Shown one piece after another: positions 25 to 54,820 of a DNA stretch of 64,000 nucleotides (within the stretch, counting starts at the first letter, position 1; every line of letters begins with the position of its first letter). The notes beneath the pieces are model-generated. The model was not told the DNA's origin, ran no database searches, and saw nothing but the letters and a program-made list of their open reading frames with translations. The translations under genes were made by a program, and so were the position numbers. Source of the stretch: Malacoraja senta (lineage: Eukaryota); assembly GCA_038087875.1 (NCBI GenBank), contig CM075992.1, positions 10,914,001 through 10,978,000 of the forward strand, given 5' to 3'.

Positions 25-545
25 GTCCTAGTGCTAGGCGCCCAACACCCTTGTAAACTTCAGTGGCTGTTCCACTGGGTCTTCCCCATTCCCCTCAAAC
101 CATGTGACCCCAGCTCTTCCCCACACACACTACAGTCCTCATACCCCCCTACCCCCTGACCACCCACCACCCACCCACCAGACATCGCCTCGGCCTCAGT
201 CCACTCACCTGCCTTCCTCCGGCCCCAATCCCCATCCCTGCCGTGTGTTCACCATCCCCCTGACCTCCCCCCTCAGATACCGAATGGTCTGTCCTCAGCA
301 GAGGCCTCACCTTTGTCTCCCTCCATCCCCACCTCAATGAGTTCCGCGCCCGCCGCAATTTGGAGCTCTTTTTCCGTCGCCTCCGCCTCACACCATTCTT
401 CCATGGGAAGGAGTCCTCACCCCCATTGATGATCCTTTTCCCATCTCCAACGGACCCCCTCCTCTTGGACACCCCCTCATGGCCATCTTCCGACTTTAGA
501 CCATTTTATTTTAAACTGCCGGCTGGACATCAACCGCCTCAACAG
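25..545 (+). mobile_element. Penelope-like element fragment (region upstream of the RT core)
   Basis: Colinear with 41951-42460, which runs on into a Penelope RT; encodes ELFFRRLRLTPFFHG. Confidence 0.75.
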
Positions 546-779: not shown

Positions 780-1795
780 ATTTGTCAATAAGGAACAATT
801 CTTTAAGAAATAGTCCCCAACAGGAGGCACATGCAAAAGCCACAGAAGCTATTTTGGGAAGTTACAGCGCTATCACTGATGCCCTCAGTCATTTGTACTC
901 TGATGTTAATGTGAAGGGTGATACCAGGCATCAAGCTAACAATCTTTTGCAGAAAATGGAAGAACTGGAATTTGAGTTTTTTGGACCCGTCTGCTAGGTC
1001 ATTTGCACAAGGTCAACAAAGCCATTCAGAAATCCAAACTGTTATTGAATACTTATGCAAGTTTGTACAGTTCACTTCAGGATTTTGTAAGCAAAATTAG
1101 TGAAGATTTTGATGAGCTTGAGCAACAAGCAAAGGCCACCTTGCCAATGTTAACTACAGAACTGTCACAGGGAGACAAAGAGTAAGGAAATGGCAAGGAA
1201 ATGATGGAAGTGCACCTGGTCCTGATGCTTTAGATAAACTCTCTTCAAGAGATAAGTTTAGGATAAAATCCTTTATTCCGATACGAGATGCACATGAAAC
1301 CAATTTAAAAAGAAGAGGTACTGTGTACAGTGAAGTTGCACAACAGTTTCCCTTTCTTGCTAATCTGACCGCATCTAAGCAAGAAATTCAGCAAGGTGTT
1401 GAACTGTTGATGAAGCATACCCAGAAGTTGTTGACTTGAAACTTACTGATGAACTATTGCACTTTCACTCGTATGAGAGACAAAGCCATAGGCATACAGA
1501 AGAGCACTCTCTGTCTCATACAGACCGTTATCAAATAATATAGAAGGAAACAATTCAGATGGCCTTCCCAAATGTGGAAGCAATCTTGCGGCTGTTTCTT
1601 AGCTTAATAGTCACCAACTGCTCAGGAGAGAGGTCTTTTTCAAGACTCAAAGAATTAAAAATGAATGAAGGTCCACAATGTCTCCAGAGAGGTTGTCTGC
1701 ACTGATCATTCTGTGCATTGAGAGTGACAAACTTAGACAAACAGATCTTGGTGAACTTTTGGATGATTTTGCCATGAAGAAGGCGAGAGAAAAAC
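780..1795 (+). pseudogene. hAT transposase C-terminal remnant, frameshifted
   Basis: Broken frames read ...RHQANNLLQKMEELEF..., HKVNKAIQK..., and near 1560-1650 AFPNVEAILRLFLSLIVTNCSGERSFSRLK, the hAT C-terminal dimerisation motif. Confidence 0.85.
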
Positions 1796-2349
1796 ATTTT
1801 TGCTCTTAGTGTATTTGTAGTTTCTTTATTTCTTAATATTCAAGATTCAATTCAAGAGTCACTTATTGTCACATGCAACAATTGGTGTAATGAAATTTGG
1901 GGGTCACCATCCGACATCTGAATGGGAGATCATTCTCAGCGGCTTGGACTTCCGAATCGGCCACTTCCTACCTGAGACTGCGGCTCCCGAAGTCCACAGG
2001 CTGAGCTGGGCGGAGATTCATGCTGGCGGCCCTCGGCAAAGGGATGTTGAAATCAGCGTGGCCCGAGGCTGGGAGCTCCGCAAACCACAGCTCCATGATG
2101 TTGAAGCAGTAGGCCCAACACTCCAGAACTTCAAACGGCGATCCAGGTAAGGCATCGCCGGCTCCGCGGTGAATCCAATATGTATTTAAAAACCAACTGT
2201 TTAATGACAACATACAGTAGGATCTAAAAGTGCCACACTGTCACTGTCGGGTAGTCATGGTCCTTTAGTCACGGGGGTGGGGGATTGGTGGGGGGGGGGC
2301 CTCACAAGTGAAATAGCTTTGGGCCTCTCTTCATCTAAATCCGGCACTG

Positions 2350-8200: not shown

Positions 8201-8351
8201 GTTCTACCATTGAAGGACCATGTGGAGGTTGCAATCTCCCACCCCAGCCCTACGCTCACTCTGCAGCAACCCCGACACAATAATCAAACCCACCGACAAG
8301 GGAGGTGCCATGGTAGTCTGGCACGCTGACGCTAAGGCCAGGCAACAATTC

Positions 8352-9047
8352 TCAGACATCCTGTGAATTCTCTGCCACAGAAGGCCTCCACTGCCTTCTG
8401 TGGCAGAGAATTCCTCAGATCCACAACTCTCAGGGTGAAAATGTTTTCCCTCATCTCAGTCCTACCACTTATTCTTAAACTGTGACCCCTGGTTCTGGAC
8501 TCCCCCAACTTTGGGAACAATTTTCCTGCATCAACCCTGTCCATTCCTCCAATAATTTTATTCTTTTCAATATGATCCCATCTCATCTTTCTAAATTCCA
8601 ACAAATACAAGCCCAGTCGACCCATTCTTTCATCATATGTCAGTCCCGCCATCCCGGGAATTAACCTGGTGAACCTACGCTGCACCCCCTCAATAGCAAT
8701 AATGTCCTTCCTCAAAATGGAAGACCCAAATTGCACACAATGCTCCAGGTGTGGTCTCACCAGGGCCCTGTACAACTGCAGTCGGACCTCCTTGCTCCTA
8801 AACTCAAATCCTCTTGCAATGAAGGCTAACATGCCATTAGCTTTCTTCACTGCCTGCTGTACCTACCTGCATGCTTACTTTCAGTGACTGATATACAAGC
8901 ACACCCAGGGCTCGTTGCACCTCCCTTTCTTCGAATCTGACACCATTCAGATAATAATCTGCCTTCCTGTTCTTGTCACCAAAGTGGATAACCTCACATG
9001 TATCCACATTATACTGCATCTGCCATGCTTCTGCCTTCTCACCCAAA
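8352..9047 (-). mobile_element. CR1 LINE fragment
   Basis: ORF 8332-8850: KKANGMLAFIARG...RPHLEHCVQF...QRRFTRLIPG. Confidence 0.9.
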
Positions 9048-10831: not shown

Positions 10832-10863
<32 letters not shown>

Positions 10864-13800
10864 TTATTTATTAGAAGTACATTACATCACAGCCACATAC
10901 ATTAATACTCGTCATTTATATCTTCTTACAATTAATGTACTCCCTTTATTTTTTTTTTACGCTAAAGAAAGAAAAGATTGAAAGAGAGAAGAAAGTGAAG
11001 GAAAAAGTGCAAGTGTAGAAAAGTGTAGAAAATGTAACAACAAACAAAAAAAAAAAAAAGGACGAGGACCCTATGAAAGCGAAATTAAAGACAAAAAAAA
11101 AAAAGGAGTTAAGAAATAGGCCCTAAGAAAAGAAAAGAGAGAGAGAAAAAAAGAAAAACAAATGTTTTTTTTTTTTTGAGCATCACGTAAATAGGACATA
11201 CCAACTCTTCAACTATCATCCCCCCTTACCCGACCTCAATTTTTTATTTTTTTAAAGTACTTTTGCACCCTATGTTTGTAATAATTCTATAAATGCAGAC
11301 CACGTCAGGTGGAAGTGATCTGGTTTACCTGCTAGGAGGAGTCTTATCTCTTCAAGGTGTAGTGTTTCAAACATATTTGAAATCCACATATTTATAGTTG
11401 GTATTGGAGCCTTCTTCCAAAATTTTAGAATTAGCTTTTTTCCAGTTATTAACCCATAATCCATTAATTTCTTTTGAAACACATTTAGTTCTGGATCATC
11501 TTCCGTTATTCCGAAGATAATCCATTCTGCTTTGGGTATCAGTCTTGTTTTAAATAACTTTGTAAAGATTTCAAAAATTTCATTCCAAAATTTTTGAATT
11601 TTTGTACAGAAGACAAATGAGTGCGCTATAGTTGCTTCTTGGGATTGACATTTATCACAAATAGATGATACGTTTGGGAAAATTTTATGAATTTTAGTTT
11701 TCGAATAATATAATCTATGTAAAATTTTAAATTGTATTAAAGTGTGTCTTACATTAATCGAGCATTTATGTACTTTTAATAAGTATTCATTCCAACTTTC
11801 CTTTGAAATTTTAATGGCTAACTCTTGTTCCCAGTCTCTTCTGATACCCTCCGTAGATGGTATTTGTACATTTAAGATAATATTGTACAAATATGATATT
11901 AAGTTTGCTGATTCCGCTTTTGTCTGCATTGCCTCGTCCAGTACATCTGCTGGGTTATTATGATGATCTTTTATATATTTTTTCAAATAGTCGCATATTT
12001 GAAAGTATTTAAAATATTGATTATTTCCGAGTTTATATTTTATTTGTAATTGTTGAAATGAAAGTAATTTTCCAGTTTCATACAAGTCACCAAGCGTTTT
12101 AATTCCTAGTCTATCCCATTGTGTATAAGCTTTATCTATAATAGAAGGACTAAACGAAGGGTTATTGACTATAGGTAATAAAAGTGATAAGTTTCTTAAT
12201 TTTAAATTTTGTTTTATTTGTTTCCAAATACGGATTGTACTATGAATAATTGGGTTCTTATTATAGTTTATGTTATTCAATTTCATTGGAGAGAGGAGGA
12301 TCGCTCCAATGTTTCTAGAGGAGCAATCCTCTTTCTCCATTACAATCCAGTCTACTTGCTGGGCGGAGTTATCCATCAGTTGAATCATGTTTTTAATATT
12401 TACTGACCAATAATAATACATAAAATTGGGTAGTGCTAGACCCCCCAATACTTTAGATTTATTCAGATGGGTTTTTTGTATTCTATGTGATTTATAGTCC
12501 CATATAAAATTAGTGATATCTGAGTCGAGTTTTTTAAAAAACTTCTTAGGTAAGTATATAGGGATTGATTGAAATAGGTATAAAATTTGTGGTAAAAAGA
12601 TCATTTTTATTGCGTTTATTCGGCCTATTAAAGACATCGGAAGCGTTTTCCAGAATTTAATTAATGTATTCAGTTTATTAAGTAGGGGGTCAAAATTTGC
12701 CCTGAGCATACCTTGATATGCTCTGGTAATTTCGATTCCCAAATATTTAAATTTTTCTGTAGCTATTTTAAAAGGGAATTTTAAAAGATGTGTTGAATCT
12801 TTCGGTTTTATTGACATAATTTCACTTTTATTCCAATTTATTCTATATCCAGAAAAAGATCCGAAGTCTTCAATTAAATTTAATATATTTGGTATAGTGA
12901 TTTGAGGTTTTGTGATATACAATAATATATCATCCGCGTATAAAGATATTTTATTATATGAGTCTTTAGTATTATATCCATGAATATCAGGGTGTATTCT
13001 AATTTTTTCTGCTAGCGGTTCAATAATGAGAGCAAACAGCTGTGGTGATAATGAGCATCCTTGTCTATTTCCCCTTGATAGTTGAAATTTCGAGGATAAT
13101 ATGTTATTAGTAAGTATTCTAGCTGTAGGTTTGTTATATAGTAACTTAATCCATAAAATAAAATTCTCTCCCAGTTGAAATTTTTGTAATACTTTATCCA
13201 TATAATTCCATTCTACTTGATCAAATGCTTTTTCAGCATCCAGCGAAATAATTGATAATTCTTGATCTTCAGATTTGTGTGAGTGCATTATGTTGAGTAG
13301 ACGTCTCATATTATTAGAAGAGTATCTCTTAGGGATAAACCCTGTCTGATCTGGGTTTATTAATTTACTAATGTATTTACTTAATCTTCTGGCTAATGTT
13401 TTCGCTAATATTTTTTGATCTGTGTTTAACAATGCTATAGCTCTATATGAGCCAGGATCTTCTAAATCCTTATTTTTCTTAGGTATTAATGTAATCGTTG
13501 ATTCCGCTAATGTATCAGGTAGTATTCGTTTTTTAAAAGCGTATTGGTACATTTTTTGTAGTCTTGGTATTATTTTTTCATAAAAGTTTTTATAAAATTC
13601 ATTAGTAAATCCATCAGGGCCTGGTGTTTTTCCATTTTTTAGTGAGTTTATTGTATCTTCTAATTCCTTAATTGAGATTTGTGCACCCAGTTCCTCTTGT
13701 TCCTTCAGCTCTAACTTTGGAAGATTACAGGTATCCAAGAACTTTGTGATATTATTGGAATCAATTATCGTTTTAGATGTATACAAATTCTCGTAAAATT

Positions 13801-15126
13801 GCGCAAATCTTTTATTAATATCCTTCGGTGTTGTTAATAATTCCCCTTTATCTGATTTGATCTTTGGTATAGTATGTTCCTTTTCTCGTTTTTTTAGCTG
13901 GCGAGCCAAAAGTTTATGCGGTTTATCCCCAAATTCAAAGTGCTCTTGTTTTGTAATTTGAAAAAGTCTTATAAGTTTGGCAGATAATAATTTATTTAAT
14001 TTAAATTTTAAAATTATTATTTTATTATGTTTATCTATTGTTGGATCTTTAGCATTATCTATATCCATTTGTCTAATAAGTTCTTCTAACTGTCTTTGTT
14101 CATTCTTATTCTTTTTATTTTGAAAAGCTTGATATGAAATTATAATACCCCTAATGTATGCTTTAAAAGATTCCCAAAGTAAAGTAGGCGATATATCTGA
14201 AGTATCATTTGTTTGAAAAAAGACCTCCATTTGTTCTTTTAAATATATACTCGCTTGTGGATCTTTTAAAATTTGAGAGTTAAATCTCCAGAATGAATTA
14301 TTCTTAGACAATCCTTCCAGTTTTAAAAAGAAAGTTAGTGGAGAATGGTCTGAAATTGAATTTGTATGATATATTGCATTAGATGTTTGGGGGATTAATT
14401 TTGTATCCAGCAGAAAGTAGTCTATACGTGAGTATGTCTTATGTACCATTGAGTAAAACGAATATTCCCTGCCAGTTGGGTTCACAATTCTCCAAACATC
14501 TGCTATATTAGTGTTGTTTATGTAGGTATTGAGGAGTTCCCCAGTTTTCGATTTCATATTCCCTCTCTGTTTTTGACTTGATTTATCTAAGTACGGGTCT
14601 AAAACACAATTAAAGTCTCCGCCTATTATAACATTTTGATAGTTTGACTCTGCAATTATATTAAAGATTTTATTGAAAAAGTGGGGGTTATCAAAGTTAG
14701 GGGCATATATATTTACCAAAGTAAGTGGAGTGTCATGGATTTCTCCATTAACTATTAGGTATCTCCCTTCTATATCTGTTATAATATTCTTTGCTTTAAA
14801 TGGTATACCTTTTCTTATGATAATTGACGTGCCTCTAGATTTTGAAGTGAATGAAGAGTGGTATGTTTGACCTATCCATTTCGCCCTCAGCCTAACTTGG
14901 TCCTGAGGTTTTAGGTGTGTTTCTTGTAGGAAGGTAATGTCAGAATTATACATTTTTAGCTGAGCTAATATCTTACCCCTTTTGATAGGTTCATTAATGC
15001 CTCTTATATTCCAACTACAAAATGAGACTCCTCCTAGGTTCTTTTGTGTGGTGTCATGCATTTTGAATAATTATAGTACCTTTGAATCTTGTGGTGCGTC
15101 CATATCCCAGGTCTTTAGGTATTGGT
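10832..15126 (-). mobile_element. L1-clade LINE, 5'-truncated (ORF2 + 3' UTR + poly(A)), young insertion
   Basis: Poly(T) on + at 10827-10858; TSD CTCCCCATTACTTTTT at 10816-10831 and 15127-15142; empty site near 20946-20961. Confidence 0.95.
11270..15061 (-). CDS. L1 ORF2p (APE endonuclease, reverse transcriptase, C-terminal CCHC), uninterrupted 1263 aa
   Basis: EN motifs SWNIRG, FLQETH, NIYAPN, GDFN, RIDYF, SDH; RT motifs SLDAEKAFD, RQGCSLSP, LYADD, FKYLG; CDKC...H...C knuckle. Confidence 0.95.
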   Translation of the reverse strand: MHDTTQKNLGGVSFCSWNIRGINEPIKRGKILAQLKMYNSDITFLQETHLKPQDQVRLRAKWIGQTYHSSFTSKSRGTSIIIRKGIPFKAKNIITDIEGRYLIVNGEIHDTPLTLVNIYAPNFDNPHFFNKIFNIIAESNYQNVIIGGDFNCVLDPYLDKSSQKQRGNMKSKTGELLNTYINNTNIADVWRIVNPTGREYSFYSMVHKTYSRIDYFLLDTKLIPQTSNAIYHTNSISDHSPLTFFLKLEGLSKNNSFWRFNSQILKDPQASIYLKEQMEVFFQTNDTSDISPTLLWESFKAYIRGIIISYQAFQNKKNKNEQRQLEELIRQMDIDNAKDPTIDKHNKIIILKFKLNKLLSAKLIRLFQITKQEHFEFGDKPHKLLARQLKKREKEHTIPKIKSDKGELLTTPKDINKRFAQFYENLYTSKTIIDSNNITKFLDTCNLPKLELKEQEELGAQISIKELEDTINSLKNGKTPGPDGFTNEFYKNFYEKIIPRLQKMYQYAFKKRILPDTLAESTITLIPKKNKDLEDPGSYRAIALLNTDQKILAKTLARRLSKYISKLINPDQTGFIPKRYSSNNMRRLLNIMHSHKSEDQELSIISLDAEKAFDQVEWNYMDKVLQKFQLGENFILWIKLLYNKPTARILTNNILSSKFQLSRGNRQGCSLSPQLFALIIEPLAEKIRIHPDIHGYNTKDSYNKISLYADDILLYITKPQITIPNILNLIEDFGSFSGYRINWNKSEIMSIKPKDSTHLLKFPFKIATEKFKYLGIEITRAYQGMLRANFDPLLNKLNTLIKFWKTLPMSLIGRINAIKMIFLPQILYLFQSIPIYLPKKFFKKLDSDITNFIWDYKSHRIQKTHLNKSKVLGGLALPNFMYYYWSVNIKNMIQLMDNSAQQVDWIVMEKEDCSSRNIGAILLSPMKLNNINYNKNPIIHSTIRIWKQIKQNLKLRNLSLLLPIVNNPSFSPSIIDKAYTQWDRLGIKTLGDLYETGKLLSFQQLQIKYKLGNNQYFKYFQICDYLKKYIKDHHNNPADVLDEAMQTKAESANLISYLYNIILNVQIPSTEGIRRDWEQELAIKISKESWNEYLLKVHKCSINVRHTLIQFKILHRLYYSKTKIHKIFPNVSSICDKCQSQEATIAHSFVFCTKIQKFWNEIFEIFTKLFKTRLIPKAEWIIFGITEDDPELNVFQKKLMDYGLITGKKLILKFWKKAPIPTINMWISNMFETLHLEEIRLLLAGKPDHFHLTWSAFIELLQT

Positions 15127-15295: not shown

Positions 15296-15956
15296 CAGAA
15301 TTCTCACTGACTTAGCCCATCTCGTGCGGCCTCACTAAAGTCCGATAGAACAGCATCATGACATCCTGATTCTTATCCGAGTGGTGGCACCATCGAGTGT
15401 GGCTGTCTCGCCTGCAGCTGTCTGTCCTTTCATTCATTTTGTTATTTTTTAGTCTGTTTTAAAGTTTGTTTTTGGAGGTCTATTAGTCTTTTTTTACGTG
15501 GGGGGAGGGGGAAACTGTTTTCCTTAGTCACTTCCTGGCCGAGGATGCGACTATTCTCCGAGCCGCTTCTTCGCCCCCTCCTCGCAGCCTACCATCTGGA
15601 TTGGCACGGCCTTTCCTGCTGGAGACCGGCCAGAGCTTCAGCTTCAGCAGCGGCGCAGCACTGGATTCCATCGCGGAGCAAGCGATGCCTTACCGGGAAT
15701 CGCCGTGTTGGAGCTCCGGAGTGCTGGGACTGCCGACTTTGAACACCATGGAGCTGTGGTCTGTGGAGCTTCCAGCCGCTGGCGGCGCTGACTTTCCAGC
15801 CGCTGGTACCACTGACTTTGACATCGCGGTGCCTGGGATCTCTTGTCGAGGTCGCCAGCGTTGAATCTCCGACCAGCTCGGCCTGTGGACTTCGGAAGCT
15901 GCGGTTTCTGGTAGGAAGCGGCTGATTCGGAGGCTCCGTGCTGCTGAGAGTGTTGG

Positions 15957-17150: not shown

Positions 17151-17960
17151 GGGGAGTGGGCAGTACAGAGATAAAATGTAGTCAGAGACAGGAAGACTAC
17201 CAGAACTGGTAAGGGATGGAGAGAGAGAGAAAGCAACGGCTACTTAAAGTTAGAGAAGTCATTGTTCATGCCTCTGGGGTGTAAGCTACCCAAGCAAAAT
17301 ATGAGGTGCTGTTCCTCCAAATTGCACTGGGCCTCACTCTGACAATGAAGGAGACGCAGGACAGAAAGGCCAGTGTGGGAGTGGGAAGGGGAATTAAACA
17401 CCTGTCCCTATACCTCCCCCCACGACTCCGTCGCAGGATCCCAAGAGTCTTTTCAGGTGAGGCAGAGGTTCACTTGCACCTCCTCCAACCTCATTTACTG
17501 TATGTGCTGTTCCAGGTGTGGACTCCTGTATATCGGCGAGACCAAGTGCAGGCTCGACGATCGTTTTGCTGAACACTTTCTGCCTAAATCTACCTGATTT
17601 CCCAGTTGCTCATAACTTTAATTCCCCCTCCAATTCCCACACTGAGGTTTCTGTCCTGGGCCTCCTCCATTGTCTGAGTCGGGCACGGCCCAAATTGGAG
17701 GAACAGCACCTCATATTTTGCATGGGTAGCTTACACCCCAGTGGCATGAACATTGACTACTCTAACTTCAAGTAGCCCTTGCTTTCCTTCTGTCTCCATT
17801 CCCACCCCAGTTCGCCTACCAGTCTTACTGTCTCCGACTACATTCTATCTCTGTACCGCCCACTCCCCTGACATCAGTCTGAAGAAGGGTCTCGGCCCGA
17901 AACGCCACATATTCCTGTGCCGCCGAGTTACTCCATCATTTGGTGTCTGTCTTCGATTTA
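17150..17960. mobile_element. Penelope 3' ends in inverted arrangement (minus ~17150-17400, plus ~17400-17960) with GIY-YIG fragment
   Basis: FTCTSSNLIYCMCCSRCGLLYIGETKCRLDDRFAEH; 17240-17390 is the reverse complement of 17620-17790; hammerhead-like core at 17879-17906. Confidence 0.8.
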
Positions 17961-18136: not shown

Positions 18137-19091
18137 GGCCCCACCACCGCCCCGCGCTCCCTGCCCCGCCCCGCGCTCATTGGTCGGCCCCGTCCCGCCC
18201 CGCCCCGCGCTCATTGGTCGGCCCCGCCCCACGCGCTCCCTGCCCCGCCCCGCGCTCCCTGCCTGCCCCGCCCACGCGCTCCCACTGCCCCGCTCCCTGC
18301 TCCGCCCCGCCTGCTCCGCCCCGCGCGCTCCGACCCCGCCCCCCCCCCCCCCCCCCCCGCGAGCTCCAACAAGTTCCGCGCGCTGCTACCCCCGACCTGC
18401 GCGCGCGCTCTGACCAACCGCCTCCCTGGACCAAAGATGCCGTGCACCGCTCCCCCATCAATGGCCGCCCTGCTCCGCCCCGCGGGCTCCCATCCTCCTT
18501 TTCCTGCGCGTTCCGACCAACTGTCGCTCCACTCTGCCAGTCCACTGCTCGCCATCTGCCGCCGTTTGGTGACGGTCGCTTTGCAAATCGTTTCGAGGGT
18601 ATGTGAACTTTATAACACGCGGCAAGGTGTGTGCCCGCTGCTGCTGCAAAACTTTCCATTCACCTCCTGCCAGAACGTCAAAATAATTTAAGATTCCCTA
18701 TCTCTCAACTATTTTCCCCTTCCTGTGTAGGATCTTTCATTCATCGTTGTCTCCTTAGAGCGTGAACTTCATTACAATTTCCAACTCTAAACCTTCCATT
18801 CACTGTTTCTCTGAATGTCAAACCTCATATTCACCTATGTAAGTATTCAAATAATGCATTCATCATTTCCTAATTGTAAAATGCTTTATTCATGTTAGCA
18901 CACAAACATAGAAAATAAGTGCAGGAGGAGGCCATTCGGCCCTTCGATTCATTGTGATCATGGCTGATCGTCCCCAATCAATAACCCGTGCCTGCCTTCT
19001 TCCCATATCTCTTGATGCCACTAGCCTCTAGAACAAAAGATTCTCACTGTATCTTGGTACACGTGACAATAATAAACTAAACATTTACCAT

Positions 19092-19473
19092 CAAAGATCT
19101 TATAGCAAGCAAGATAGATCACTCAACGAAAAAGACAGCCATGGGCAGATTCAAGGGTAATTTTTGGCCCCATTTGATTTCCACAACTGGCTTCCGTCTC
19201 CGCACCAAAGATCCCATAGGATACTAGTGCAGAGACGGAAGCCGGTTACGGAAACATCCTCGTAAAAATAAAAGTTATTTGGGAAAAATCTCCTTTTCAG
19301 TATTATAATTTATTAACACAAACTGTCCCCCCGCATAGCTGATTACACTGCGGGTCGGGTCGGGTTACTGAAATGGATGGAAAAAAAGGCCCACGTTCCG
19401 CTCCGTTGCGTACTACACGTCAGCCCATTGCATTTAGAAGGAGTGGTCTATCTTGCTTGCTACAGGATCTTTG
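19092..19473. mobile_element. MITE with 33-bp TIRs and 8-bp TSD (P-element-like; hAT not excluded)
   Basis: TIRs caaagatcttatagcaagcaagatagatcactc / gagtggtctatcttgcttgctacaggatctttg; TSD tttaccat (19084-19091, 19474-19481). Confidence 0.85.
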
Positions 19474-19479
19474 TTTACC

Positions 19480-21585
19480 ATGGAAGAGCAAGTGGTATTG
19501 AATAAAGAAATTAGGTCGTCAGTGCTGAGATGGAGGGGAGACGCCTCGATGGTGCAGATGTCGGGAGCAGCTATGAAAGCCTCAGAGAAGTTACTGGCAG
19601 TCGAAGAGTTTGATTACATATTCTACCTTGCAGCAAAACTTGAATAACATTTCAGCAGCACCAAGATTTTAGGTTTTCCAGCTATAAATAAACCCTATTG
19701 AAAAACTTGAACTTAAGTCAAGTAGCAGGAAACTAAAACAACTAAATCTATACTTATTTTGCATACCCTTAATTTTCCTTTGAATTTAAGCAGTGTGTGC
19801 AATGGGCATCAATGATCCCATCAGTTCCCATAAGATTACTTAGTTCAATATTACCACCAGGGGCGCTGTACGATTGGCAGCCCTGCCAACAGCCTGTTTT
19901 TTCTTTTTTTGTTATTTAAGTGTGTTTAAAAAGTTTGTATAAAAAATGTTCTCCTGTTTGTTTTATATGTGGGAAGGGGGAGGGTCTCTTACCCTGCCGG
20001 AGATGCGAGTTTTCCGGATCTCATCTCCGGTTGTTCTGCTGCCTAACATCGTGGAGTTGGAGGCCTGCTCGGACTGACTTTGAGCCACACCGCGGGGCAT
20101 GGCCTTATCATCAGAGCTGTTCCCTTGCCTGGGACTTTACATCGAGAGCTCGCGGTCTCGGGAGAGGCTGAGACAGGAGCTCCAACGATGCAGAGATTCG
20201 ACGCCCCAACCTGGAGTCCGATTGCCCGCATGGAGGAGCACACATCCCCCCGATGGGGGAGCTGATCGCCCCAACGCGGAGGGCCCAAACGCCGCCGGCT
20301 ACGGGAGTCAAGATCATCCTGTCAACGGAAGGCTCGAGGCCCCCGACCGCAAGGGAACAAAGAAGAGAAGAGATTGAACTTTTTTTTTCACCTTCCATCA
20401 CAGTGAGGAATGTGGAGGAGTCACTGTGATGGATGTTTATATTAAAATGTATTTTGTGTGTTTTGTTGCTTTTTATTTGTATGACTGATAAGTTGGCTTA
20501 TCAGTCATACAAATAAAGTTGGCTAATAAAGTATTATTGTAATTTATTATTTGTAATAAAGTATTATTGTATTGTATTGTATTACCCATGGTGTGTTTTC
20601 AGTCCTGTGACTCATGATCCTCACTGCCACTTCCCTCGTGATTCTGTAATTCCTGAATTTGATATAAACATGTCTGGATAAAGTTAAACAAGACTCTAAT
20701 AGTAGCGCATGTCATCGTTTATTGTACTTACGAATATACCAACTGCTATTCCTTTGAACACTCAATTCTCGTTTAACTTTAATGTTATTACTCACATTTA
20801 CAGCTCTTTAACTGCAGATAATCTCAAAGAAGTCATTCCAATAATCACCTGGAGTTGTATGTACAGGTGATCATTACTTTCCACTCTCTTGCACTTTGCG
20901 AATGTACATTCATCCTTTTCAATACAAGAATCAAACCCATTACCCCTCCCCATTACTTTTTGATGTTGTTGTTTACAGTAAACATTCGAAATGGTTCCTC
21001 CGCTCAGTCCGCCTATGTCTACGTGATCTCCTGGTTGCTAAACACTTTAACTTGCCCTATTCCCATACTGACCTTTCTGTTCTGGGCCTCCTCCACTGTC
21101 AGAGTGATACTCAACAGAATTCTCACTGACTTAGCCCATCTCGTGCGGCCTCACTAAAGTCCGATAGAACAGCATCATGACATCCTGATTCTTATCCGAG
21201 TGGTGGCACCATCGAGTGTGGCTGTCTCGCCTGCAGCTGTCTGTCCTTTCATTCATTTTGTTATTTTTTAGTCTGTTTTAAAGTTTGTTTTTGGAGGTCT
21301 ATTAGTCTTTTTTTACGTGGGGGGAGGGGGAAACTGTTTTCCTTAGTCACTTCCTGGCCGAGGATGCGACTATTCTCCGAGCCGCTTCTTCGCCCCCTCC
21401 TCGCAGCCTACCATCTGGATTGGCACGGCCTTTCCTGCTGGAGACCGGCCAGAGCTTCAGCTTCAGCAGCGGCACAGCACTGGATTCCATCGCGGAGCAA
21501 GCGATGCCTTACCGGGAATCGCCGTGTTGGAGCTCCGGAGTGCTGGGACTGCCGACTTTGAACACCATGGAGCTGTGGTCTGTGG
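19480..21585 (+). repeat. Near-identical duplicate of 9349-15766 lacking the L1 insertion
   Basis: Direct alignment with scattered single-base differences; the ORF-track peptides repeat almost exactly. Confidence 0.95.
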
Positions 21586-21587
21586 TC

Positions 21588-22368
21588 TCTCTCAACTATT
21601 TTCCCCTTCCTGTGTAGGATCTTTCATTCATCGTTGTCTCCTTAGAGCGTGAACTTCATTACAATTTCCAACTCTAAACCTTCCATTCACTGTTTCTCTG
21701 AATGTCAAACCTCATATTCACCTATGTAAGTATTCAAATAATGCATTCATCATTTCCTAATTGTAAAATGCTTTATTCATGTTAGCACACAAACATAGAA
21801 AATAAGTGCAGGAGGAGGCCATTCGGCCCTTCGATTCATTGTGATCATGGCTGATCGTCCCCAATCAATAACCCGTGCCTGCCTTCTTCCCATATCTCTT
21901 GATGCCACTAGCCTCTAGAACAAAAGATTCTCACTGTATCTTGGTACACGTGACAATAATAAACTAAACATTTACCATCAAAGATCTTATAGCAAGCAAG
22001 ATAGATCACTCAACGAAAAAGACAGCCATGGGCAGATTCAAGGGTAATTTTTGGCCCCATTTGATTTCCACAACTGGCTTCCGTCTCCGCACCAAAGATC
22101 CCATAGGATACTAGTGCAGAGACGGAAGCCGGTTACGGAAACATCCTCGTAAAAATAAAAGTTATTTGGGAAAAATCTCCTTTTCAGTATTATAATTTAT
22201 TAACACAAACTGTCCCCCCGCATAGCTGATTACACTGCGGGTCGGGTCGGGTTACTGAAATGGATGGAAAAAAAGGCCCACGTTCCGCTCCGTTGCGTAC
22301 TACACGTCAGCCCATTGCATTTAGAAGGAGTGGTCTATCTTGCTTGCTACAGGATCTTTGTTTACCAT
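21588..22368 (+). repeat. Duplicate of 18701-19481, including a second MITE copy (21979-22360)
   Basis: Constant offset of 2887; same TSD tttaccat, so duplicated rather than independently inserted. Confidence 0.95.
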
Positions 22369-36660: not shown

Positions 36661-36826
36661 GTGAATGAAGTCTGTTTTAATAAGCAACAGTGTTAAAGAA
36701 GACATCTCCATCCTGCGGCTTTGAGTTGATAGAATTCAGCGTGGCCGCATCTATTGATATGACCTACAAAGGGAAAATGCGCACCGTCCAGTGCCAGAGC
36801 AGTTATACTTATGATTTGTTTGAAAC

Positions 36827-37208
36827 AATAGCAGTGAGGAAGAAGCATTCTCACGTCTACACCAGTGATAAACCGTACAACTGTAAAGTAAGAAGCTGCG
36901 ACAAGTCATACACTCACCCTAGTTCTCTTCGCAAACACATGAAAGTTCACTGCAAATCTCCTCCCCCTCCCGCTAGCTCAGGCTATAAGCTTTCAAACAC
37001 ATCCTTGGGGATAGTGTCCCCAGCCGCAGAGACAGTCAGGGGCCGCACTGCCAGCGTGTCCTCGCAAGTAACTAACCTCAACGGATGGTACGTCTCTCAG
37101 GGAAGCAGGGCGGCCAACAGCCTGCACGCACCTTCCAACAATGGCACCTCGTCCGACACCGAGGATGAGGAAGCTTACACGAACTCTGATCCCAGAACTA
37201 TGCTCTGA
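36827..37208 (+). pseudogene. zic5: Zic5 last-exon fragment (end of ZF4, ZF5, C-terminal tail), decayed
   Basis: RKKHSHVYTSDKPYNCKVRSCDKSYTHPSSLRKHMKVHCKSPPP...SQVTNLNGWYVSQ...HAPSNNGTSSDTEDEE matches the vertebrate ZIC5 C-terminus. The Asp codon of NSSDR is reduced to one G (36836), His becomes Tyr at 36858-36860, and the start of ZF4 is missing. Confidence 0.85.
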
Positions 37209-39630
37209 CATAGGTGCGTTGGAGAAGTGTGCAAGTGGGCAAGAGTCAACGCAGGGTTAGTGGCAATGGAGCCCATCAACTAAAGGCAGCTAGGATGTCC
37301 AATGATGACCATCTTACACCAGCTAGATTCAAACCTCGTAGGAAAGGAATTTAAGGGCTAAGTATAGGTTCTTAGGCAACTTTTTGGCCTCCGTGTCAGT
37401 CAGAATTATTGTGTGTACTTCGAGGTAAAAGAGAATCGCTATCTCATTTACTTTCAGACTATAGATATTGATTTTCTGAAATCAGACGTGACTTAAATAG
37501 ATAAAACATATCATCAGACCCATTTCGGACTGGCAATAGAATCTTCGACCCACGAGAAACACCTCGCTTCTTGGAAGTGATACATACATAGCCGATCTTT
37601 GCCTACTCCCAAATTAGAGACCATTGTCCGAAAGAAGGGAAATTCTACAATTCTGTGAAATCTTCATGACTACAATCCCTGGAGGGAATCAAAACGGCCA
37701 TAGCCTTGTGTTCAGTGAAATGACACAGTGCCACCACGTTCGGTAACGAAGCACAAGCGACATTCTATTTACACATCCCTAACATACAAAGCTGAATTCG
37801 GACTTTCCTGCTATATGTGAAAAGAGTCTTCTATCAGTAAGAGTGAAACTCACAAGTACTCTATTTGACCCTGAAATCAGAATCGATAATCCTTAAATCC
37901 AAGAGCTCTAGGATTCTTTTGTGTGATCTATCCGTCATGGTAAAGCCAAAAATCTCATATTTTACACATAATTATTCAGGCCTTCAGACAAACAAACTAA
38001 AGAGCACTAAAATGTCCTTAGAGACCAGAAGATGCAAAAATGACAGGTCTGTCCCTGTAGGATTTGTACATCATTGTTGTGGGCAGCAAGTCGTTGATGT
38101 AATCGTTAGCTATCTTAAGATTTTGTCCAGAAATGCTCTTTTATTTGTAAACTATAATTTATTTGCTGATGTGTCATATCTTTCTGTGATAGTACAGACA
38201 CACCAAATAATTATATTATTACGTTTGGTGCGGTATTGTGGTGTTTATGAATCTGTGGTTTCGTCAGACAATTTAATTTTTGATTAATTGAATGAAATGT
38301 GAAAAGTAAAATATGTGATTGTTTATTTCTACTCAGTGGTGGTTAATCGTTGTAACTACAGTATTGGTCCATGTTATGATCATGATGCATGTTGCAGTCA
38401 TCTTGTATTTCCCTTGCATTGACAAACGCCACCCAGAACTCCTGATTGAAAAAAATGCAACAAAGACAGTTCCTTTATTTAGCAATGTTACAAAATTTTG
38501 ACATTTAAAAAATAAAGTCTGCAATTTATCCCATCAGATAAAGCATAAAAGGAAGTTTAATTTGACACATAACTCACTTTCATATCTTCAGTATTAAAAA
38601 AGTTATGGCCATTTTCATACTCGGAAATTAGCATCTTGTTCCCTATTGCTTATCCATTGACTTAACACAAAAGCTGTGATCGAGGACAGTCAAAAGCCCA
38701 TAACTTTCTTAAAAATTAAGAGAACTGAAAGAAATTTTCAGTTATTATAGATTGAAGCATTCTGAACCAAATATGAAACAATCTTACTTAGAAGACATGA
38801 AATTAAAGCATATAATTAGTTAGTTACCCAATTGTAGCTAATTACAAAATTCAATTACTAGATCTAAACATCTATCAATTTCTTAAGAATAGATTAACAT
38901 TTTTAAATAGCCTGTGTCCAAATAACATTCACACAACAATTCACAATATAACATAATTTTTAAATCTCATTGTCATGAATTTACAGGCCAAATGGAAGGA
39001 ATTGAATGTTTAATACCTATAAATTAATAGGCATTTAAATCATTTTGTGAGTGAGGATTTCTGGAACGCGATCATTTGGAACGTTCATTTGCGGTGAATT
39101 TAACCCCGTATCGGCATGAAAAATACTGCCGTTAGTTCGGGGAATAAAATCACCGTTTCGCATGAAAAAATGTGAATAAAAGGCTTCTTAAGAAGCACTT
39201 TTATACATTTAAATAAACCACTTTCGTTTACCTGTCCCGTGTGTGAAATCCGTCCCCGTTATCGGCGTTGACGGCTTCAGGAGCTGATTTTAAAATGACT
39301 CCAGGGCTGACATTGTCGATTTAATAAAAATAAAAAATTCACAAAACGCCCCTAGGAACGTTTTTTCAGCAAACGCTTGTACTCCAACAAAATATAATTC
39401 AGGACAAGGTAGGAGAAACCCGTGTTTTAAGCCCGCCCCCCCCTTAAAGGCGCCAAAATCGCGCACACGGCCAGTGGCAGAATTACAGCACCATTGAAGG
39501 TAAGTATTGTAACATACCTACTTTATTGAAATGAATGGTCCACGTTTACTTTGTGTTTCAGTGAAAGAGGTTAAACCGTGTGACAGTATATTTTCCAATT
39601 GTGAATAAAGAGATATTGTTTTTCCTCTGT
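37209..39630 (+). other. Probable zic5 3' UTR remnant, interrupted by a MITE
   Basis: Apparently non-repetitive AT-rich sequence after the stop codon; AATAAA at 39604-39609; no poly(A) tract. Confidence 0.5.
38480..39520 (+). mobile_element. Non-autonomous DNA transposon, TAG...CTA ends, 7-bp TSD (hATw-like)
   Basis: Imperfect TIRs tagcaatgttacaa / ttgtaacataccta; TSD ctttatt (38473-38479, 39521-39527). Confidence 0.85.
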
Positions 39631-41749
39631 TTTAATAATCGTATTCCATATTAAATGTCTAAATCCTAACAAAATGTCGAAACGTGATTTTTTTGCGGGG
39701 TCTGCGGATGTAGCAACACTCAACTCGATCTTCGATAGTGAAGAATCGAGTAATCTCAGCCAATGGTGGAAAGCCAGATGATTTCAGGCCCCGGGAGTGA
39801 GTTTTATGTTTATATGTTTATTGTTGCACAAGGACCTCTGCCTCTGTGCAAATATTTACCTGTTCAATGGCAGAATGGGAGACATGTAAGAGGCAGGTTG
39901 AAGAAGCTACCTGGATACAATTGGCAGCCAGATGTAAAACAGTTCACAATATTATCTGTAATCGTTATTTGAAAACGACGTAAAAAAGGCAAGCAAAAAA
40001 GTCACATTTGTTTTCGGAAATCAAAATGTTCTGGGGTCCAAAATTGCAGGGAAACTGGGAGATATATTGGTTGAGGCGAAATCAAGATTTAACGAAGATT
40101 CCCGTTTTACAAATCCGGTCGCAGTACACGAATATACCGAACTGTTTTAATATCTCCACAGTTCAGTTGTAACCTCGCCCCACAAATGTTATACTTGATT
40201 ATTTACATTTTATTGCACGGTCGCCCCCAGCAGCGCATAAAACCAAAATGCAGCATCAAAAACAATGCGGCAAAATACATAGTTTCCGCAGTTCAATTTC
40301 TGATTGTCACAGTTCTAGATATGATGAAGTTTTTCATAATTCATCATCTGTCTCAGAGGAACTGAATTTGTCTCTAGGATCATAATGGATATTTAAATTA
40401 TTATCGTCGACTTTATGTACGTTATGGGTGGTATATCCCATGTACCGCTGATCGCGCTTCAGGGTCACCTTGTGAAGGTGGATATCATACCACCTAAAAG
40501 TGCTGGAGTTACACAAAGACACAGCAGAAATTTGGAAATGTCATCCCATCACACATTCCTTCTCTCCAGAGATGCTGCCTGCCCGCTGAGTTAAAGAGTT
40601 CCCACGGTAGACTCACGAGTCACTAAGGTAAACGCACGGGCCACTACGTTCTTACAACGTATTTAAACGTTTCAAATTTTAACCTCAAGAGTACATTTTA
40701 CTCGTGGAAAAGTTTAAACATGTTTGAATTTTTCCAAGAGTTAACAAGTGTCACGGGTACCTGCCGTTAGCGCCAAGAGTCGCTAAGTTGCGTCCACGAG
40801 TTCCGACTTTCAAGTGTTCAAGTTCAAGTGAGTTTATTGTCATCTGTCCCTGATAGGACAATTAAATTCTTGCTTTGCTTCAGCACAACAGAACATAGTA
40901 GACATAGGTTTAATCCTTCACCCTTTAGATTATAATGATGCAGAACACCAGCAGAATCAAATTGCAAATGATTTGCTGACAACAAATGCATCTAAATCAT
41001 ACCACTGGCACTAAAAAGAAGCATAATGAGACAAAAAAGGACTGAAATTAATTTAGGGCGCAATTACCAAATCTTGACTTAAGAGGAGGCTATTAAGAGT
41101 CAGGAAGACATGTTTCAGCTTTATGGGACTTTGGTGAGGCTGCATTTGGCGACGTACAGTGGCTGCCTTGACAACAGTCTGCCTCGTCCCTTTCTCTCTT
41201 TATTGTTTTTTAGTCTGTAGCTAAATGTTGTTTTAGTGTATGTTTAGTTTTGCGTTAGGTGGTGGGGGGGACTTTTTTATCTCTTTCCTCGACGGAGATG
41301 TGACTTTTCCTTTTCATATCTACATCTGCACTGCGGCCTAACATTGTGTAGCTGGCGGCCTCTTGCTGGGGATCGATCTTGGGTCCGCCAGCCGCGGATA
41401 ACATCGTGGACAGGGCCGGATTTACGTACAAGCTAGACAAGCTTAAGCTTAGGGCCTTGAGATCTAGGGGGGCCTCTGCTCGCTCCACCAAGGTGTATAC
41501 AACTTTTGAGATAGTGGCGTTGTTACAAAACCTACCATCATTGGCGCTGTGCGATAGTGGCGTTGTTACAAAACCTACCATCAGTGGCGCTGTGCTTGCG
41601 ATTCCGGAGGCTTTGGTGGTGTAGGGGGGGAGGGGGGGGGTAGGATATATTAGTTGTGGAGAGGAATTTGCTCCACAGATCCTTGGATCATTCGAAGTGC
41701 AGGACAAAGCAAAAGGTATGTAGTTTATTTAACCTTTTTCCCCCGCCAA

Positions 41750-41950
41750 ACTTCGCCGCCGCATTGGGGCCTACCCACCTCGCCGGTGCACTGGGGCCTA
41801 CCCACCTTGCATCCGCACTGGGGGCCTATCCACTTCGCCGCCGCACTGGGGCCTACCCACCTCGCATCCGCACTGGGGGCCTATCCACCTCGCATCCGCA
41901 CGGGCCTACCCACCTCGCCGGCGCACTGGGGGCCTACCCACCTCGCCGCC
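41750..41950. repeat. ~30-bp minisatellite inside the hAT element
   Basis: Repeated cgcactggggcctacccacctcgcc variants. Confidence 0.85.
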
Positions 41951-43900
41951 GTCCTAGTGCTAGTCAACCTAACCCTGGTAACCTCAGTGGCTGTTCCACT
42001 GGGTCTTCCCCATCCCCCTCAAACTATGTGACCTCTGCTCTTCCCCACCCACACTACAGTCTTCATGCCCCCCTCCTCCCTGACCACCCACCAACCAGAC
42101 ATTGCCTCGGCCTTAGTCCACTCACCTGCCTTCCTCTGGCCCCAACCCGCATCCCTGCCATGTGTTCACCATCCCCCCTGACCTCCTCTCCGACACCGAA
42201 CGGTCGGTCCTCAGCAGAGGTCTTACCTTTGTCCCCCTCCGTCCCCACCTCAATGAGTTCCGCGCCCACCACGACTTGCAGCTCTTCTACCGTCGCCTCC
42301 GCCTCACAGCGTTCTTCCATGGGAAGGAGTCCTCGCCCCCTATTGATGATCCCTTTTCCCATCTCCAACGAACCCCCTCCTCGTGGACCCCCCCTCATGG
42401 CCTTCCGGCATTAGACCTTTTTATCCAAAACTGCCGGCGGGGCATCAACCACCTCAACTTCTTCACTCCCCTGTCTCACTCCAATCTCTCCCCCCCTGAA
42501 CGTACAGCCATCAACTCACTCCGCAACAACCCAGACTGAGTTATCAAACCCGCCGACAAGGGAGGTGACGTGGTAGTCTGTCTCGTCGATCTCTACAAAG
42601 CTGAGGCCACGCACCAACTCTCGGACAACTCCTCCTACTTACCCCTGGACCATGACTCCACAGATGAGCACCAGGCCACTATCTCCAGCACCATCACTGA
42701 CTTCATCCACTCCGGCTCCCTGCCCCCCCCCCCCCGAGCCTCCAACCTCATCGTTCCCCAGCCCCGCACGGCCCGATTTTACCATCTCCCCAAAGTCCAC
42801 AAACCGGACTGTCCTGGTAGACCCATTGTCTCTGCCTATTTGTGCCCTACCGAACTTATTTCCACATACCTTGACTCCATCCTATCCCCACTGGTTAAAT
42901 CCCTACCTACCTATGTTCAAGACACCTCAGACACTCTCCGTCGTCTCCGCGCATTCCATTCTCTAGGCCCCCATCCCCTCATCTTCACCATGGACGTCCA
43001 GTCACTCTACACCTCCATCCCCCACCAGGATGGTCTTAAAGCCCTCCGGTTCTTCCTCGACCGGAGAATCAACCTATACCCGTCCACTGATATCTCCTCC
43101 GCCTAGCGGAGTTGGTCCTTACCCTCAATAACTTCTCGTTGACTCCTCCCATTTCCTCCAAATACAAGGTGTAGCTATGGGCACGCACATGGGCCCCAGC
43201 TATGCCTGCCTCTTTGTCGGGTACGTCGAACAATCCTTGTTCGAGGCGTATCAGGGCCTCTACCTCTGCTACATCGACGATTGCTTTGGTGCTACCTCCT
43301 GCACCCACACACAACTGACTGACTTCATCCGCTTCACCACTAACTTCCATCCAGCACTCAAATACACCTGGACCATTTCCGACACTTCCCTACCATTTCT
43401 TGACCTCACTATCTCCATTGCAGGTGATAGACTTCTGACCGACATCCACTATAAACCCACTGACTCCCATGGCTATCTAGACTTCTTCCCACCCTGCTTC
43501 CTGTAAGGACTCCATCCCTACTCCCAATTCCTCCGTCTACGCCGCATCTGCTCCCAGGATGAGGTGTTCCACACCAGGGCATCGGAAATGTCCTCATTCT
43601 TCAGGGAACGGGAGTTCCCCTCCCCTACCATAGATGAGACTCTCACCAGGGTCTCTTCCATACCCTGTAACACTGCTCTCTCTCCCCATCCTCCCACTCG
43701 TAACAAGGGCAGAGTCCCCCTAGTCCTCACCTTTCACCCCACCAGCCGTCACATACAACAAATAGTCCTCCGTCATTTTCGCCACCTCCAACGTGACCCC
43801 ACCACTCGCCACATCTTCCCATCTCCCCCCCTGTTTGCTTTCCGCAAAGACCGCTCCCTCCGCAACTCCCTGGTCAATTCTTCCCTTCCCTCCTGCACCA
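41951..43900 (+). pseudogene. Penelope-like reverse transcriptase, frameshifted, GIY-YIG domain absent
   Basis: VLSRGLTFVP, KPADKGG, FYHLPKVHKPDCPGRPIVS, TMDVQSLYTSIPH, AMGTHMGPSYACLF, YIDD, LPFLDL, VPLVLTFHP. Confidence 0.9.
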
Positions 43901-44307
43901 CCCGAAGTCCACAGGCTGAGCAGGGCGGAGATTCACGCTGGCGGCCCTCGGCAAAGGGATCCCAGGGCTCCACAATGTTTAAATCAGCGCAGCCCGAGGC
44001 TGGGAGCTCCGCAAACGACAACTCCATGATGTTGAAGCAGCAGGCCCAACACTCCAGAGCTTCAAACGGCGATCCAGGTAAGGCATCGCCTGCACCGCGG
44101 TGAATCCAATATGTATTTTAAAACCAACTGTTTAATGACAACATACAGTAGGATCTAAAAGTGTCACACTGTCACTGTCGGGTAGTAATGATCCTCTAGT
44201 CGTGGGGGTGGGAGATTGGGAGGGGGGGGGGCCTCATAAGTGAAATAGCTTAGGGCCTCTCTTCATCTAAATCCGGCCCTGATCGTGGAGCTCAGGGTCT
44301 CTGGTTA

Positions 44308-47989: not shown

Positions 47990-49880
47990 AGTTCATGTCA
48001 TAGGAACAGAATTAGGTCATTTGGCCCATCGAGTCCACTCCGCCATTCAATAATGGCTGATCTGTCTTTCTCTATCAACCCCATTATCTTGCCTTCTCTC
48101 CATAAGCTTTGATACCCTTACTAATCAAGAATCTGTCAACCTCTGCTTTAGAAATACCCAAATATTTGGCCACCAGAACCATCTGTGGCAATGAATTCAA
48201 TGGATTCACCACCCTCAGAAATTCTTCCTTGTCTCCTTTCTGAAATTACATTATTTTATTTTGAGGCTCTGTCCTCTGGTCCTAAACCTAGGTATGTTAC
48301 AAAACTTACCTTCAGTCGCGCTGTAATTCTGCCACTGGCCATGTGCGCGATTTTGGCGCCTTTAAGGGGGGGCTGGGTTAAAACGCGGGTTTCTCCTCCC
48401 TTGTCCTGGTTAATATTTTGTTGGAGTACAAGCGTTGGCTGATGAATCGTTCCTAGTGGTGATTTGTGTATTTTTTATTTTATTTTTATTAAATCGTCAA
48501 TGTCAACGTCAATTTTAAAATCAGCTCCTGAAGCGTCAACGCCGATAACGGGGACGGATTTCACACACGGGACAGGTAAACGAAAGTGGTTTCTTTAAAT
48601 TTATAAAAGTGCTTCTTAAGAAGCCTTTAATTCTCATTTTTTCATGCGACACGGTGATTTTATTCCCCGAATTAACGGCAGTATTTTTCATGCCAATACG
48701 GGGTTAAATTCACCGCAAATGAACGTTCCAAAAGATCGCGTTCCAGAAATCCTCACTCGCAAGATGAATTAAATGCCCATTAATTTACAGGTATTAAAGA
48801 TTCAATTCCTTCCATTTGGCCTGTAAATTCATGAAAATTAGATTTAAAAATTATGTTATATTGTGAATTATTGTGTGAATGTTAATTGGACACAGGCTAT
48901 TTAAAAATGTTAATCTATTCAAAGAAATTGATAGATGTTTAGATCTAGTAATTGAATTTTGTAATTAGCTACAATTAGGTAACTAACTAATTATATGCTT
49001 TACTTTCATGTCTTCGAAGTAAGATTGTTTCATATTTGTTTCAGAATGCTTCAATCTATAATAACTGAAACATTCTTTCAGTTATAATTTTTAAGAAAGC
49101 TATGGGCTTTTAACTATCCTCGATCACAGCTTTTGTGTTAAGTCAATGGAAAAGAAATAGGGAACTAGATGCTAATTTCGGAGTATGATAATGGCCATAA
49201 CTTTTTTAATACTGAAGATATGAAAGTGAATTAAGTGTCAAATTAAACTTCTTTTTATGCTTTATCTGATGGTATAAATTGCAGACTTTATTTTTAAAAT
49301 CTCAAAATTCTGTAACATTGCTACTAAACGCTATTGGAAGCATCCTTTCCACATTCACTCTATCCGGGCCTTTCATTATTTGGTAAGTTTCAATGAGGTC
49401 CCCCCTCATCTTAAACTCCAGCAAGTATAGACCTAGAGCCATCAAATGCTCATCGTAGTATGTCACCCCATCATCTGGGAGTATTCTCTTAAACCTTCTC
49501 TGAACCCTCTTCAATGCCACCATATCCTTCCTTATGTATGGGGCCCAAAACTGCTCACAACACTCCAAATGCGGTCTGACCTGTCCCTTACGAAGACTCT
49601 GCATTACATCACTGCTTTTATGTTCTGATCATCTCGAAATGAATGTAACGATTGTAATTGCCTTCCTTACTACCAATTCAACTTGCAAATTAACCTTTTG
49701 GGAATCCTGTACTGCACTTCCAAGTTTTTTTGCACCTCTGATTTCAGAATCGCCTCCCCATTTAGAATGTAGTCTGTGCCTTTATTCCTACTTTCAAAGT
49801 GTATGACTGCACATTTTGCTACACTGTATTACATCTGCCACTTCTTTGCTCACCCTCCCAACCTGTCCAAGCCCTTCATC
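47990..49880 (-). mobile_element. Degraded CR1 3' portion split by a MITE
   Basis: RPHLECCEQFWAP...MRGDLIETY; CR1 sequence on both sides of 48289-49323. Confidence 0.75.
48289..49323 (-). mobile_element. Second, inverted copy of the TAG...CTA 7-bp-TSD element
   Basis: Reverse complement of 38480-39520 along its length; flanks ctaaacc (48282-48288) / ctaaacg (49324-49330). Confidence 0.85.
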
Positions 49881-52927: not shown

Positions 52928-53400
52928 CAGGGCCAGCCTTAAGCCGATTGGACCGATTGCTCCCAATTGGGCCCCGCGCCTAAGGGGGCCCCCACGCTAA
53001 TTTTCCGTATTTCGTACAGAAATACGAATTTACGTTGTTAAATACAGATTTTATTTTTTTTAAACATTCGCCTTGTTAAATACGGATTTTTTTTAAACGA
53101 ACATGGATAAAAACTGCTGCACCGGCCATCAGACAAAAACATTTGTTAACTACCACTTGTTAACAGCCAGTCGGTAACACGTAGTTATGCAATGTGTCAT
53201 CAATGCATCGATCCACATTCCTCAGTAAATGTAATTGTGTTTTGACCAAGTATTAATGACGCCGTGTTCTTTTTTAATAAAATTCACGGGAGTCCCGTGA
53301 ATTTTATTCAAAGGAACGCGGCATCATTAATACTTGGTCAAAACACAATTACATTTACTGAGGATTGTAGATCGATGTATTGATGACACATTGAGATTTT
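52928..53400. mobile_element. hAT-like non-autonomous left end with internal palindrome
   Basis: cagggccagccttaag...gggcccc terminus; no partner TIR or TSD found. Confidence 0.45.
53190..53393. repeat. Near-perfect ~200-bp palindrome centred at 53292
   Basis: ...aataaaattcacggga g tcccgtgaattttatt...; arms pair out to caatgtgtcatc / gatgacacattg. Confidence 0.92.
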
Positions 53401-54409: not shown

Positions 54410-54820
54410 ACTGCTATCGATATCCACTCCTGCATCCTTAGTAATTATAATTGTGTCACATCGTTTTCGTGAGTCAGAAGAATGGAGTGTTAAATGCCTC
54501 GACGCATCTGAGTTTTAATGACTTCTCCCGTTAATTTATTCAAAGGAACTCAAAATACTTGAAGCAAGGTCAGTTCACGAAAACGATGTGTTAATGTCAC
54601 TGTTAATTGCTGCATCGAAATCCATTCATTATTCCTTATAATATAATTGTGTGAACTGACCTTGCTTTAAGTATGATGCGTTCTTTTGAATAAAAATAAC
54701 GGGAGACGTCATTAAAACTCAGATGCGTTGAGGCATTTAACACTCCATTCCTCTGACTCACGAAAACGATGTGACACAATTATAATTATTAAGGATGCAG
54801 GAATGGATATCGATAGCAGT
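54410..54820. repeat. Inverted repeat with ~170-bp arms and ~70-bp spacer
   Basis: 54410-54578 is the reverse complement of 54651-54820. Confidence 0.9.

Follow-up and report, generated by a model that had tools for sequence, protein, structure and literature searches.

A hAT element without detectable transposase encloses a disrupted Penelope fragment in a cartilaginous fish

Introduction

The systems closest to the element described here are hobo-N1_AC to hobo-N6_AC of Anolis (group A), six families of non-autonomous hAT transposons with 34-489 copies each (Novick et al, PMC3014272). In that paper, the group A ancestor is described as carrying a Penelope insertion of 520 bp together with a SINE of 333 bp (ACA SINE), and the families as resulting from partial deletions and recombination. 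TIR elements with internal foreign DNA and short breakpoint microhomology are also represented by Pack-TIRs, Pack-MULEs, and filler-carrying Ds. Of 370 animal Pack-TIRs, most single-copy ones are reported by Tan et al (PMC8277862) to have arisen by gap filling without transposition; microhomology is present at a breakpoint in 67.6%, with a median of 2 bp.

In the DNA stretch analyzed here (64 kb; the window), a hAT element at 41411-44281 encloses Penelope-derived sequence. Like hobo-N group A (1.9-2.4 kb), it is a non-autonomous hAT with an 8-bp TSD that contains Penelope and a second repeat. In contrast to hobo-N group A, it belongs to a different hAT lineage (the hobo-N TIR is TAGGCTTSATC), its Penelope piece is 1.95 kb long and spans the RT (520 bp in hobo-N), and it is known from one locus, whereas amplification of hobo-N group A has been demonstrated. 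With the Pack-TIR-type systems it shares internal foreign DNA and short microhomology, but their cargo is non-TE host sequence and not retrotransposon DNA. The element is ordinary, real, and well bounded, and of a kind already known from the anole. A search of literature listings and the beginnings of abstracts yielded no paper on this family of cartilaginous fish, and the available text of PMC6431247 contains nothing specific to such an element; the family may already be catalogued, for example in Repbase or Dfam. Its meaning is modest: it adds a case from a cartilaginous fish to those in which DNA transposons multiply pieces of retrotransposons. Repeat annotation mislabels such composites: they enter the tally as Penelope insertions, and both their ages and their ends come out wrong.

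Results

The element and its insertion site consist of the following parts (positions in the window):

41140-41402 (+): host interspersed repeat, target of the insertion, with relatives at 9855, 15399, 19985, and 21218
41403-41410 (+): left TSD, 8 bp, ATCGTGGA
41411-41424 (+): left TIR, 14 bp, CAGGGCCGGATTTA, matching the right TIR at 14/14 positions
41425-41740 (+): hAT left arm, with a 43-bp tandem duplication at 41507-41592
41741-41950 (+): minisatellite, about 7 units of 27/28 bp; candidate part of the hAT arm or candidate variant of the Penelope linker
41951-43903 (+): Penelope-like ORF fragment (linker, RT with YIDD at 43270, thumb), without GIY-YIG and pLTR
43901-43903 (+): microhomology CCC, 3 bp, at the Penelope 3' junction
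43904-44108 (-): 205 bp, antisense, from another interspersed repeat that recurs at 15662-15952 and 21481-21585
44109-44267 (+): hAT right subterminal region, 93% identical to 2178-2335
44268-44281 (-): right TIR, 14 bp, CAGGGCCGGATTTA, perfect
44282-44289 (+): right TSD, 8 bp, ATCGTGGA

An earlier note on this DNA had proposed perfect 14-bp TIRs and an 8-bp TSD, and both were confirmed (CAGGGCCGGATTTA at 14/14 positions and ATCGTGGA on both sides). With up to two mismatches allowed, the TIR occurs three times in the window, compared with 0.41 expected, and none of 100 shuffles reached three; the third match is the end of a related copy (copy 1; 2336-2349). Five pairs of inverted repeats, perfect over 14 bp and at most 20 kb apart, have a direct repeat of 8 bp at their flanks; among these, the 41411/44281 pair alone has a non-palindromic flank. 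The other four have palindromic flanks and are situated inside long inverted duplications.

Besides the 8-bp TSD ATCGTGGA at both ends, the element displays two further features of the hAT superfamily. Its short TIRs, starting with CAGGG, are of the YARNG type (motif from PMC3014272), and its ends are common to transposase-encoding relatives, namely the right arm of copy 1 and the left end of locus L008. The latter, like L003 and L005, is one of 10 metagenome loci carrying relatives of the copy 1 transposase; its left end aligns with the element over the latter's initial 66 nt (score 59; shuffle maximum 38). The ends of L003, L005, and L008 are similar to those of the element, yet for the terminal letters of L005 and L003 the shuffles were not beaten (right end versus L003: 41, shuffle maximum 45). 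In related organism E, 95 contigs leave position 41411 into unlike flanks, so these ends are present at many genomic sites of that organism. The right end pattern had no match in metagenome contigs, which are uninformative for a vertebrate repeat.

No transposase was found in 41411-44281 with six related transposases as queries, nor does it contain the intact ORF of an autonomous hAT; in this it differs from elements encoding DUF4371 plus hAT-dimerisation transposases. The earlier claim that about 1.95 kb of Penelope RT is enclosed without transposase was thus borne out (Penelope at 41951-43903). Such transposases are often labeled hAT-Tip100, and by its TIR and DUF4371 the lineage is a candidate member of that subgroup. 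It is almost certain that 41411-44281 is a non-autonomous hAT element which would move only with a related transposase in trans and which carries a dead Penelope fragment.

The cargo was identified by its ORF (42111-43902), which is 64% identical to protein P0001 (E=1e-125) and of the PLE type of RT. The best RT protein matches (65% and 61% identity) come from the shark Chiloscyllium, whose proteins P0001 and P0002 are 64-65% identical to the RT; the host is, therefore, probably a cartilaginous fish. Protein relatives carry RVT_1 plus GIY-YIG; in one of these, P0015, the alignment with the cargo reaches residue 758, whereas GIY-YIG begins at 801. Beyond 43903, 102 contigs of organism E and 80 of organism A run on with common other letters of Penelope type. 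Because the contigs of relatives continue with other sequence, the end at 43903 is a break and not a natural terminus, and the abrupt end before GIY-YIG at ∼43900, as noted earlier, stands. An endonuclease-less PLE (Athena/Coprina) was rejected as an identification, since family members pass 43903 and protein relatives carry GIY-YIG.

The reading frame is interrupted by two stops (42114 and 42537) and four frameshifts (near 43092, 43138, 43480, and 43515), and 12 nt are deleted at 43258, just before YIDD. Of the features of a functional EN+ Penelope, the single open ORF, the C-terminal GIY-YIG, and the pLTR are all missing. Pfam matches of the broken pieces are weak and fall short of the curated cut-offs (RVT_1, E=0.01; Dimer_Tnp_hAT, E=3e-4). 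The RT is dead and cannot be translated; being in addition without endonuclease, it is passive cargo. Compared with endonuclease-containing Penelope-like elements (features, including 5' truncation, from PMC8557442), the RT is alike and contig depth rises toward the 3' end as 5' truncation predicts, but the cargo is cut before GIY-YIG, lacks the pLTR, and is disrupted. The earlier description as a class I/class II chimera spreading RT sequence is, therefore, correct as to a hAT enclosing Penelope without transposase but not as to "spreading RT", the RT being untranslatable and endonuclease-less. Other Penelope fragments in the window lie at 17400-17900 (+; 3' end with the GIY-YIG region) and 8247-8357 (+; short internal piece).

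The minisatellite is stop-free in every forward frame. The ORF running over it (41644-42411) matched none of 1.84 billion proteins, and the likeness of the minisatellite to the 24 bases upstream of the Penelope part in copy 1 was not significant (74 of 1000 shuffles). At 41875, related organisms differ more than 100-fold in the depth of the array.

On its 3' side, the Penelope part had been thought to be fused to the hAT right arm. This is not directly the case: the 205-bp fragment of a third repeat (43904-44108) is situated in between, and the hAT end proper starts only at 44109. The junction of this fragment with the hAT end is identical at 44108 and at 2177 in copy 1, the outer flanks differ, and in all three related organisms the depth of the fragment exceeds that of the hAT end by a factor of only 1.26-1.58. 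As the junction is the same, the flanks are unlike, and the depths are comparable, one captured fragment was demonstrably spread by the hAT family within its right arm.

The possibility that 43904-44108 is the 5' end of an L1 was rejected, since the L1 at 10845-15126 (-) stops at its own TSD before that repeat. This L1 is young and 5'-truncated. Its ORF2 frame is open over 1266 aa (endonuclease, RT, zf-RVT), and it has poly(A) and a TSD of 16 bp. A duplicate at 19480-21585, 99% identical, contains the empty site. This duplicate is bracketed by direct repeats (18701-19481 and 21588-22368; 781 bp, 100% identical) and stems either from templated duplication in the recent past or from an artefact of the assembly.

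The related copy at 1-2349 (copy 1) is composed as follows:

25-543 (+): Penelope 5' fragment, corresponding to 41951-42458, 10.3% diverged
544-817 (no strand assigned): 274 bases between Penelope and transposase
818-1800 (+): C-terminal half of a hAT transposase, broken, matching residues 288-612 of P0125 (DUF4371 + hAT dimerisation)
1931-2349 (+): captured repeat fragment (1931-2177) and hAT right end, TIR 13/14; flank differs

The left TIR of copy 1 lies outside the window; a left TSD would match GATTCAGA. The 274 bases at 544-817 have no significant match within the window or loci L002, L003, L005, and L008. The transposase remnant resembles DUF4371 plus hAT-dimerisation transposases (P0125; Limulus P0121 and P0122): it is 52-76% identical per segment to P0125, 75-77% to Limulus proteins (77% to P0121), and 70% to a gecko protein model, and its DNA is 83% identical to metagenome contig L001 over 638 bp. 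These similarities hint at horizontal transfer of this hAT lineage. The gecko Shroom2 model P0124 opens with about 100 residues of transposase of this type, which is probably a gene-model error, or else a transposon-derived exon.

Copy 1 had been reported to contain the same Penelope region. About 520 bp are indeed common (25-543, equal to 41951-42458), but the rest is not and both junctions differ; the 24 bases upstream of the 41951-equivalent are unlike the element. Sharing neither Penelope junction, copy 1 does not demonstrate that the unit at 41411-44281 was mobilized. At 12 of 12 checked sites at which nearly all contigs of relatives differ from the element, copy 1 has the relatives' letter (these being the sites in shared parts among 40 listed of 615; one other, 42463, lies outside). 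Therefore, the element decayed on its own, in cargo as well as arm. The Penelope parts of the two copies differ at 52 of 505 sites and the right arms at 23 of 363 aligned sites (94% identical; Fisher p=0.05), or, when CpG transitions are left out, at 40 of 505 and 20 of 363 (p=0.18), which mildly hints at separate Penelope donors.

Sequencing runs with related words numbered 22, from eight organisms; 20 held 40-53% of the sampled words, and 4 of the 22 were compared. By sampled words, the whole element was in none of the 22. Raw-read run X22 was rejected as a relative, as only 3 of 10 million reads align. No contig bridging 43903 was among the 24 listed of 202,760 pieces from related organisms, and the 43903 junction pattern had no match in viral contigs, which are uninformative for a vertebrate repeat.

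Two joints stood out among the 15 contig joints listed of 485. In organism A, one contig leads from Penelope at 42652 to the hAT right end at ∼44210, with 3.6 times the median listed contig depth and a short side of 29 letters (the joint is listed at 44225, and the six intervening letters fit the arm); ordinary Penelope-internal deletions match it in depth (158-362). In organism E, one contig (short side 22 letters) joins position 41619 of the left arm to the minisatellite with 37 other letters in between, at about 12 times the median listed contig depth. These joints suggest family-level hAT-Penelope composites in related organisms. Left arm depth falls sharply after about 41620; in all three related organisms, summed contig depth, which is not a copy number, is 54-138x at 41693 (2-4% of that of the hAT right end) and 89-289x at 41928. 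The 12-nt deletion at 43258, used as a marker, has a depth of only 1-5x. A minority subfamily joining left arm, minisatellite, and Penelope in the relatives would fit these joints and depths.

Discussion

How the element came about can be read in several ways. To the best of these we give about an even chance: it would be a non-autonomous deletion derivative of a lineage in which Penelope was nested in a hAT transposon and whose derivatives were moved in trans. Such a history would start with the spread, documented above, of a hAT lineage with the captured repeat fragment in its right arm. A long Penelope would then have become nested in the left part of one transposase-bearing element, and internal deletions guided by microhomology, of the sort that gap repair leaves behind when an element has been excised, would have generated several derivatives. 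Here, one cut at 43903 would have removed the Penelope 3' end together with the whole transposase; in copy 1, most of Penelope would have been lost and half of the transposase kept. Finally, cut-and-paste would have moved the derivatives, creating the TSD, with no part played by the RT. This nested ancestor is favored by the three distinct Penelope 3' breaks detailed below, with their common orientation and the location of two of them in the 5' part, by the joint of left arm and minisatellite in organism E and the depths at 41693 and 41928 in the relatives, by the CCC microhomology, and by the like scheme documented for Anolis hobo-N group A. Against it count the lack of a 43903-bridging contig among those listed, the unlike upstream sequence of copy 1 and the position of its left TIR outside the window, the greater divergence of the Penelope parts compared with the arms, the short sides and single contigs of the two joints, the similar depth of ordinary Penelope-internal deletions, and the low depth of the 12-nt deletion marker.

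Rather less probable, though a serious contender, is a one-off event, in which Penelope was inserted or copied into a resident hAT, a deletion then took its 3' end along with the transposase, and no further move followed, copy 1 being a separate accident. With Penelope depth at 43639 in the relatives being 13,000-32,000 times that of the median contig, nesting is to be expected anyway, and copy 1 differs at both junctions. The intact ends had been taken as a sign of movement after capture, but this sign is weak: without a later move, all 44 TIR and TSD positions would be intact with a probability of 0.41-0.10 at 2-5% decay, that is, 10-41% of the time. What speaks against a single accident is the depth of inner left arm and minisatellite in the relatives (about 50-290x), the further hAT-Penelope joints there, and the orientation, which is the same in three of three cases. 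These three comprise distinct Penelope 3' breaks, all toward the hAT right side: at 43903, at the 42458-equivalent of copy 1 (which reaches the hAT right side via the 274 bases), and at 42652 in organism A. Two of them lie in the Penelope 5' part, the depth of which is 3.5 to 25 times lower than that of the 3' end, so random capture would favor other parts. This bears on recurrent capture, which we consider distinctly unlikely and according to which copies of the hAT family picked up genomic Penelope stretches by template switching in gap repair, each from its own donor and with no full Penelope ever nested. Random donors would favor the abundant 3' part and either orientation, whereas the cases share their orientation and include the 5' part. 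On the other hand, the Penelope segment is internal at either end, without pLTR or tail, the right junction has microhomology, the Penelope parts of the two copies diverge more than the arms, and filler capture is preferred in PMC3014272 for autonomous hobo in Anolis.

A working dual element, with the RT kept and used (a retrotransposing hAT, or a vehicle for active Penelope), is hardly credible. Nothing but the presence of the RT catalytic motifs argues for it; the two stops, the four frameshifts, and the lack of endonuclease, start, and pLTR argue against it, as does the fact that RT and hAT domains were combined in no protein among 120 listed of 170 long matches and in none of eight long transposase matches. 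The element would gain in meaning only if some copy had both its ORFs open, because a live retroelement could then travel within a DNA transposon. An ancestor in which the hAT transposase and the Penelope ORF (RT plus GIY-YIG) were both open, lay within one TIR pair, and spread as a unit is very improbable. If it did exist, an apparently horizontally mobile hAT lineage could bring active Penelope copies to new sites or new hosts.

Other features of the window

The element is flanked on either side by 1-kb repeats (38480-39520 and 48289-49323), which are inverted and 92% identical; over 30 bp, they match the 43-bp unit that is tandemly duplicated in the hAT left arm. About 4 kb from the element, an exon at 36684-37208 (+), encoding a C2H2 finger and a tail, resembles the last exon of a Zic gene. 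Long hairpin elements, foldback or MITE-like, are situated at 53190-53393 and 54410-54820 and are 92% and 85% self-complementary, respectively.
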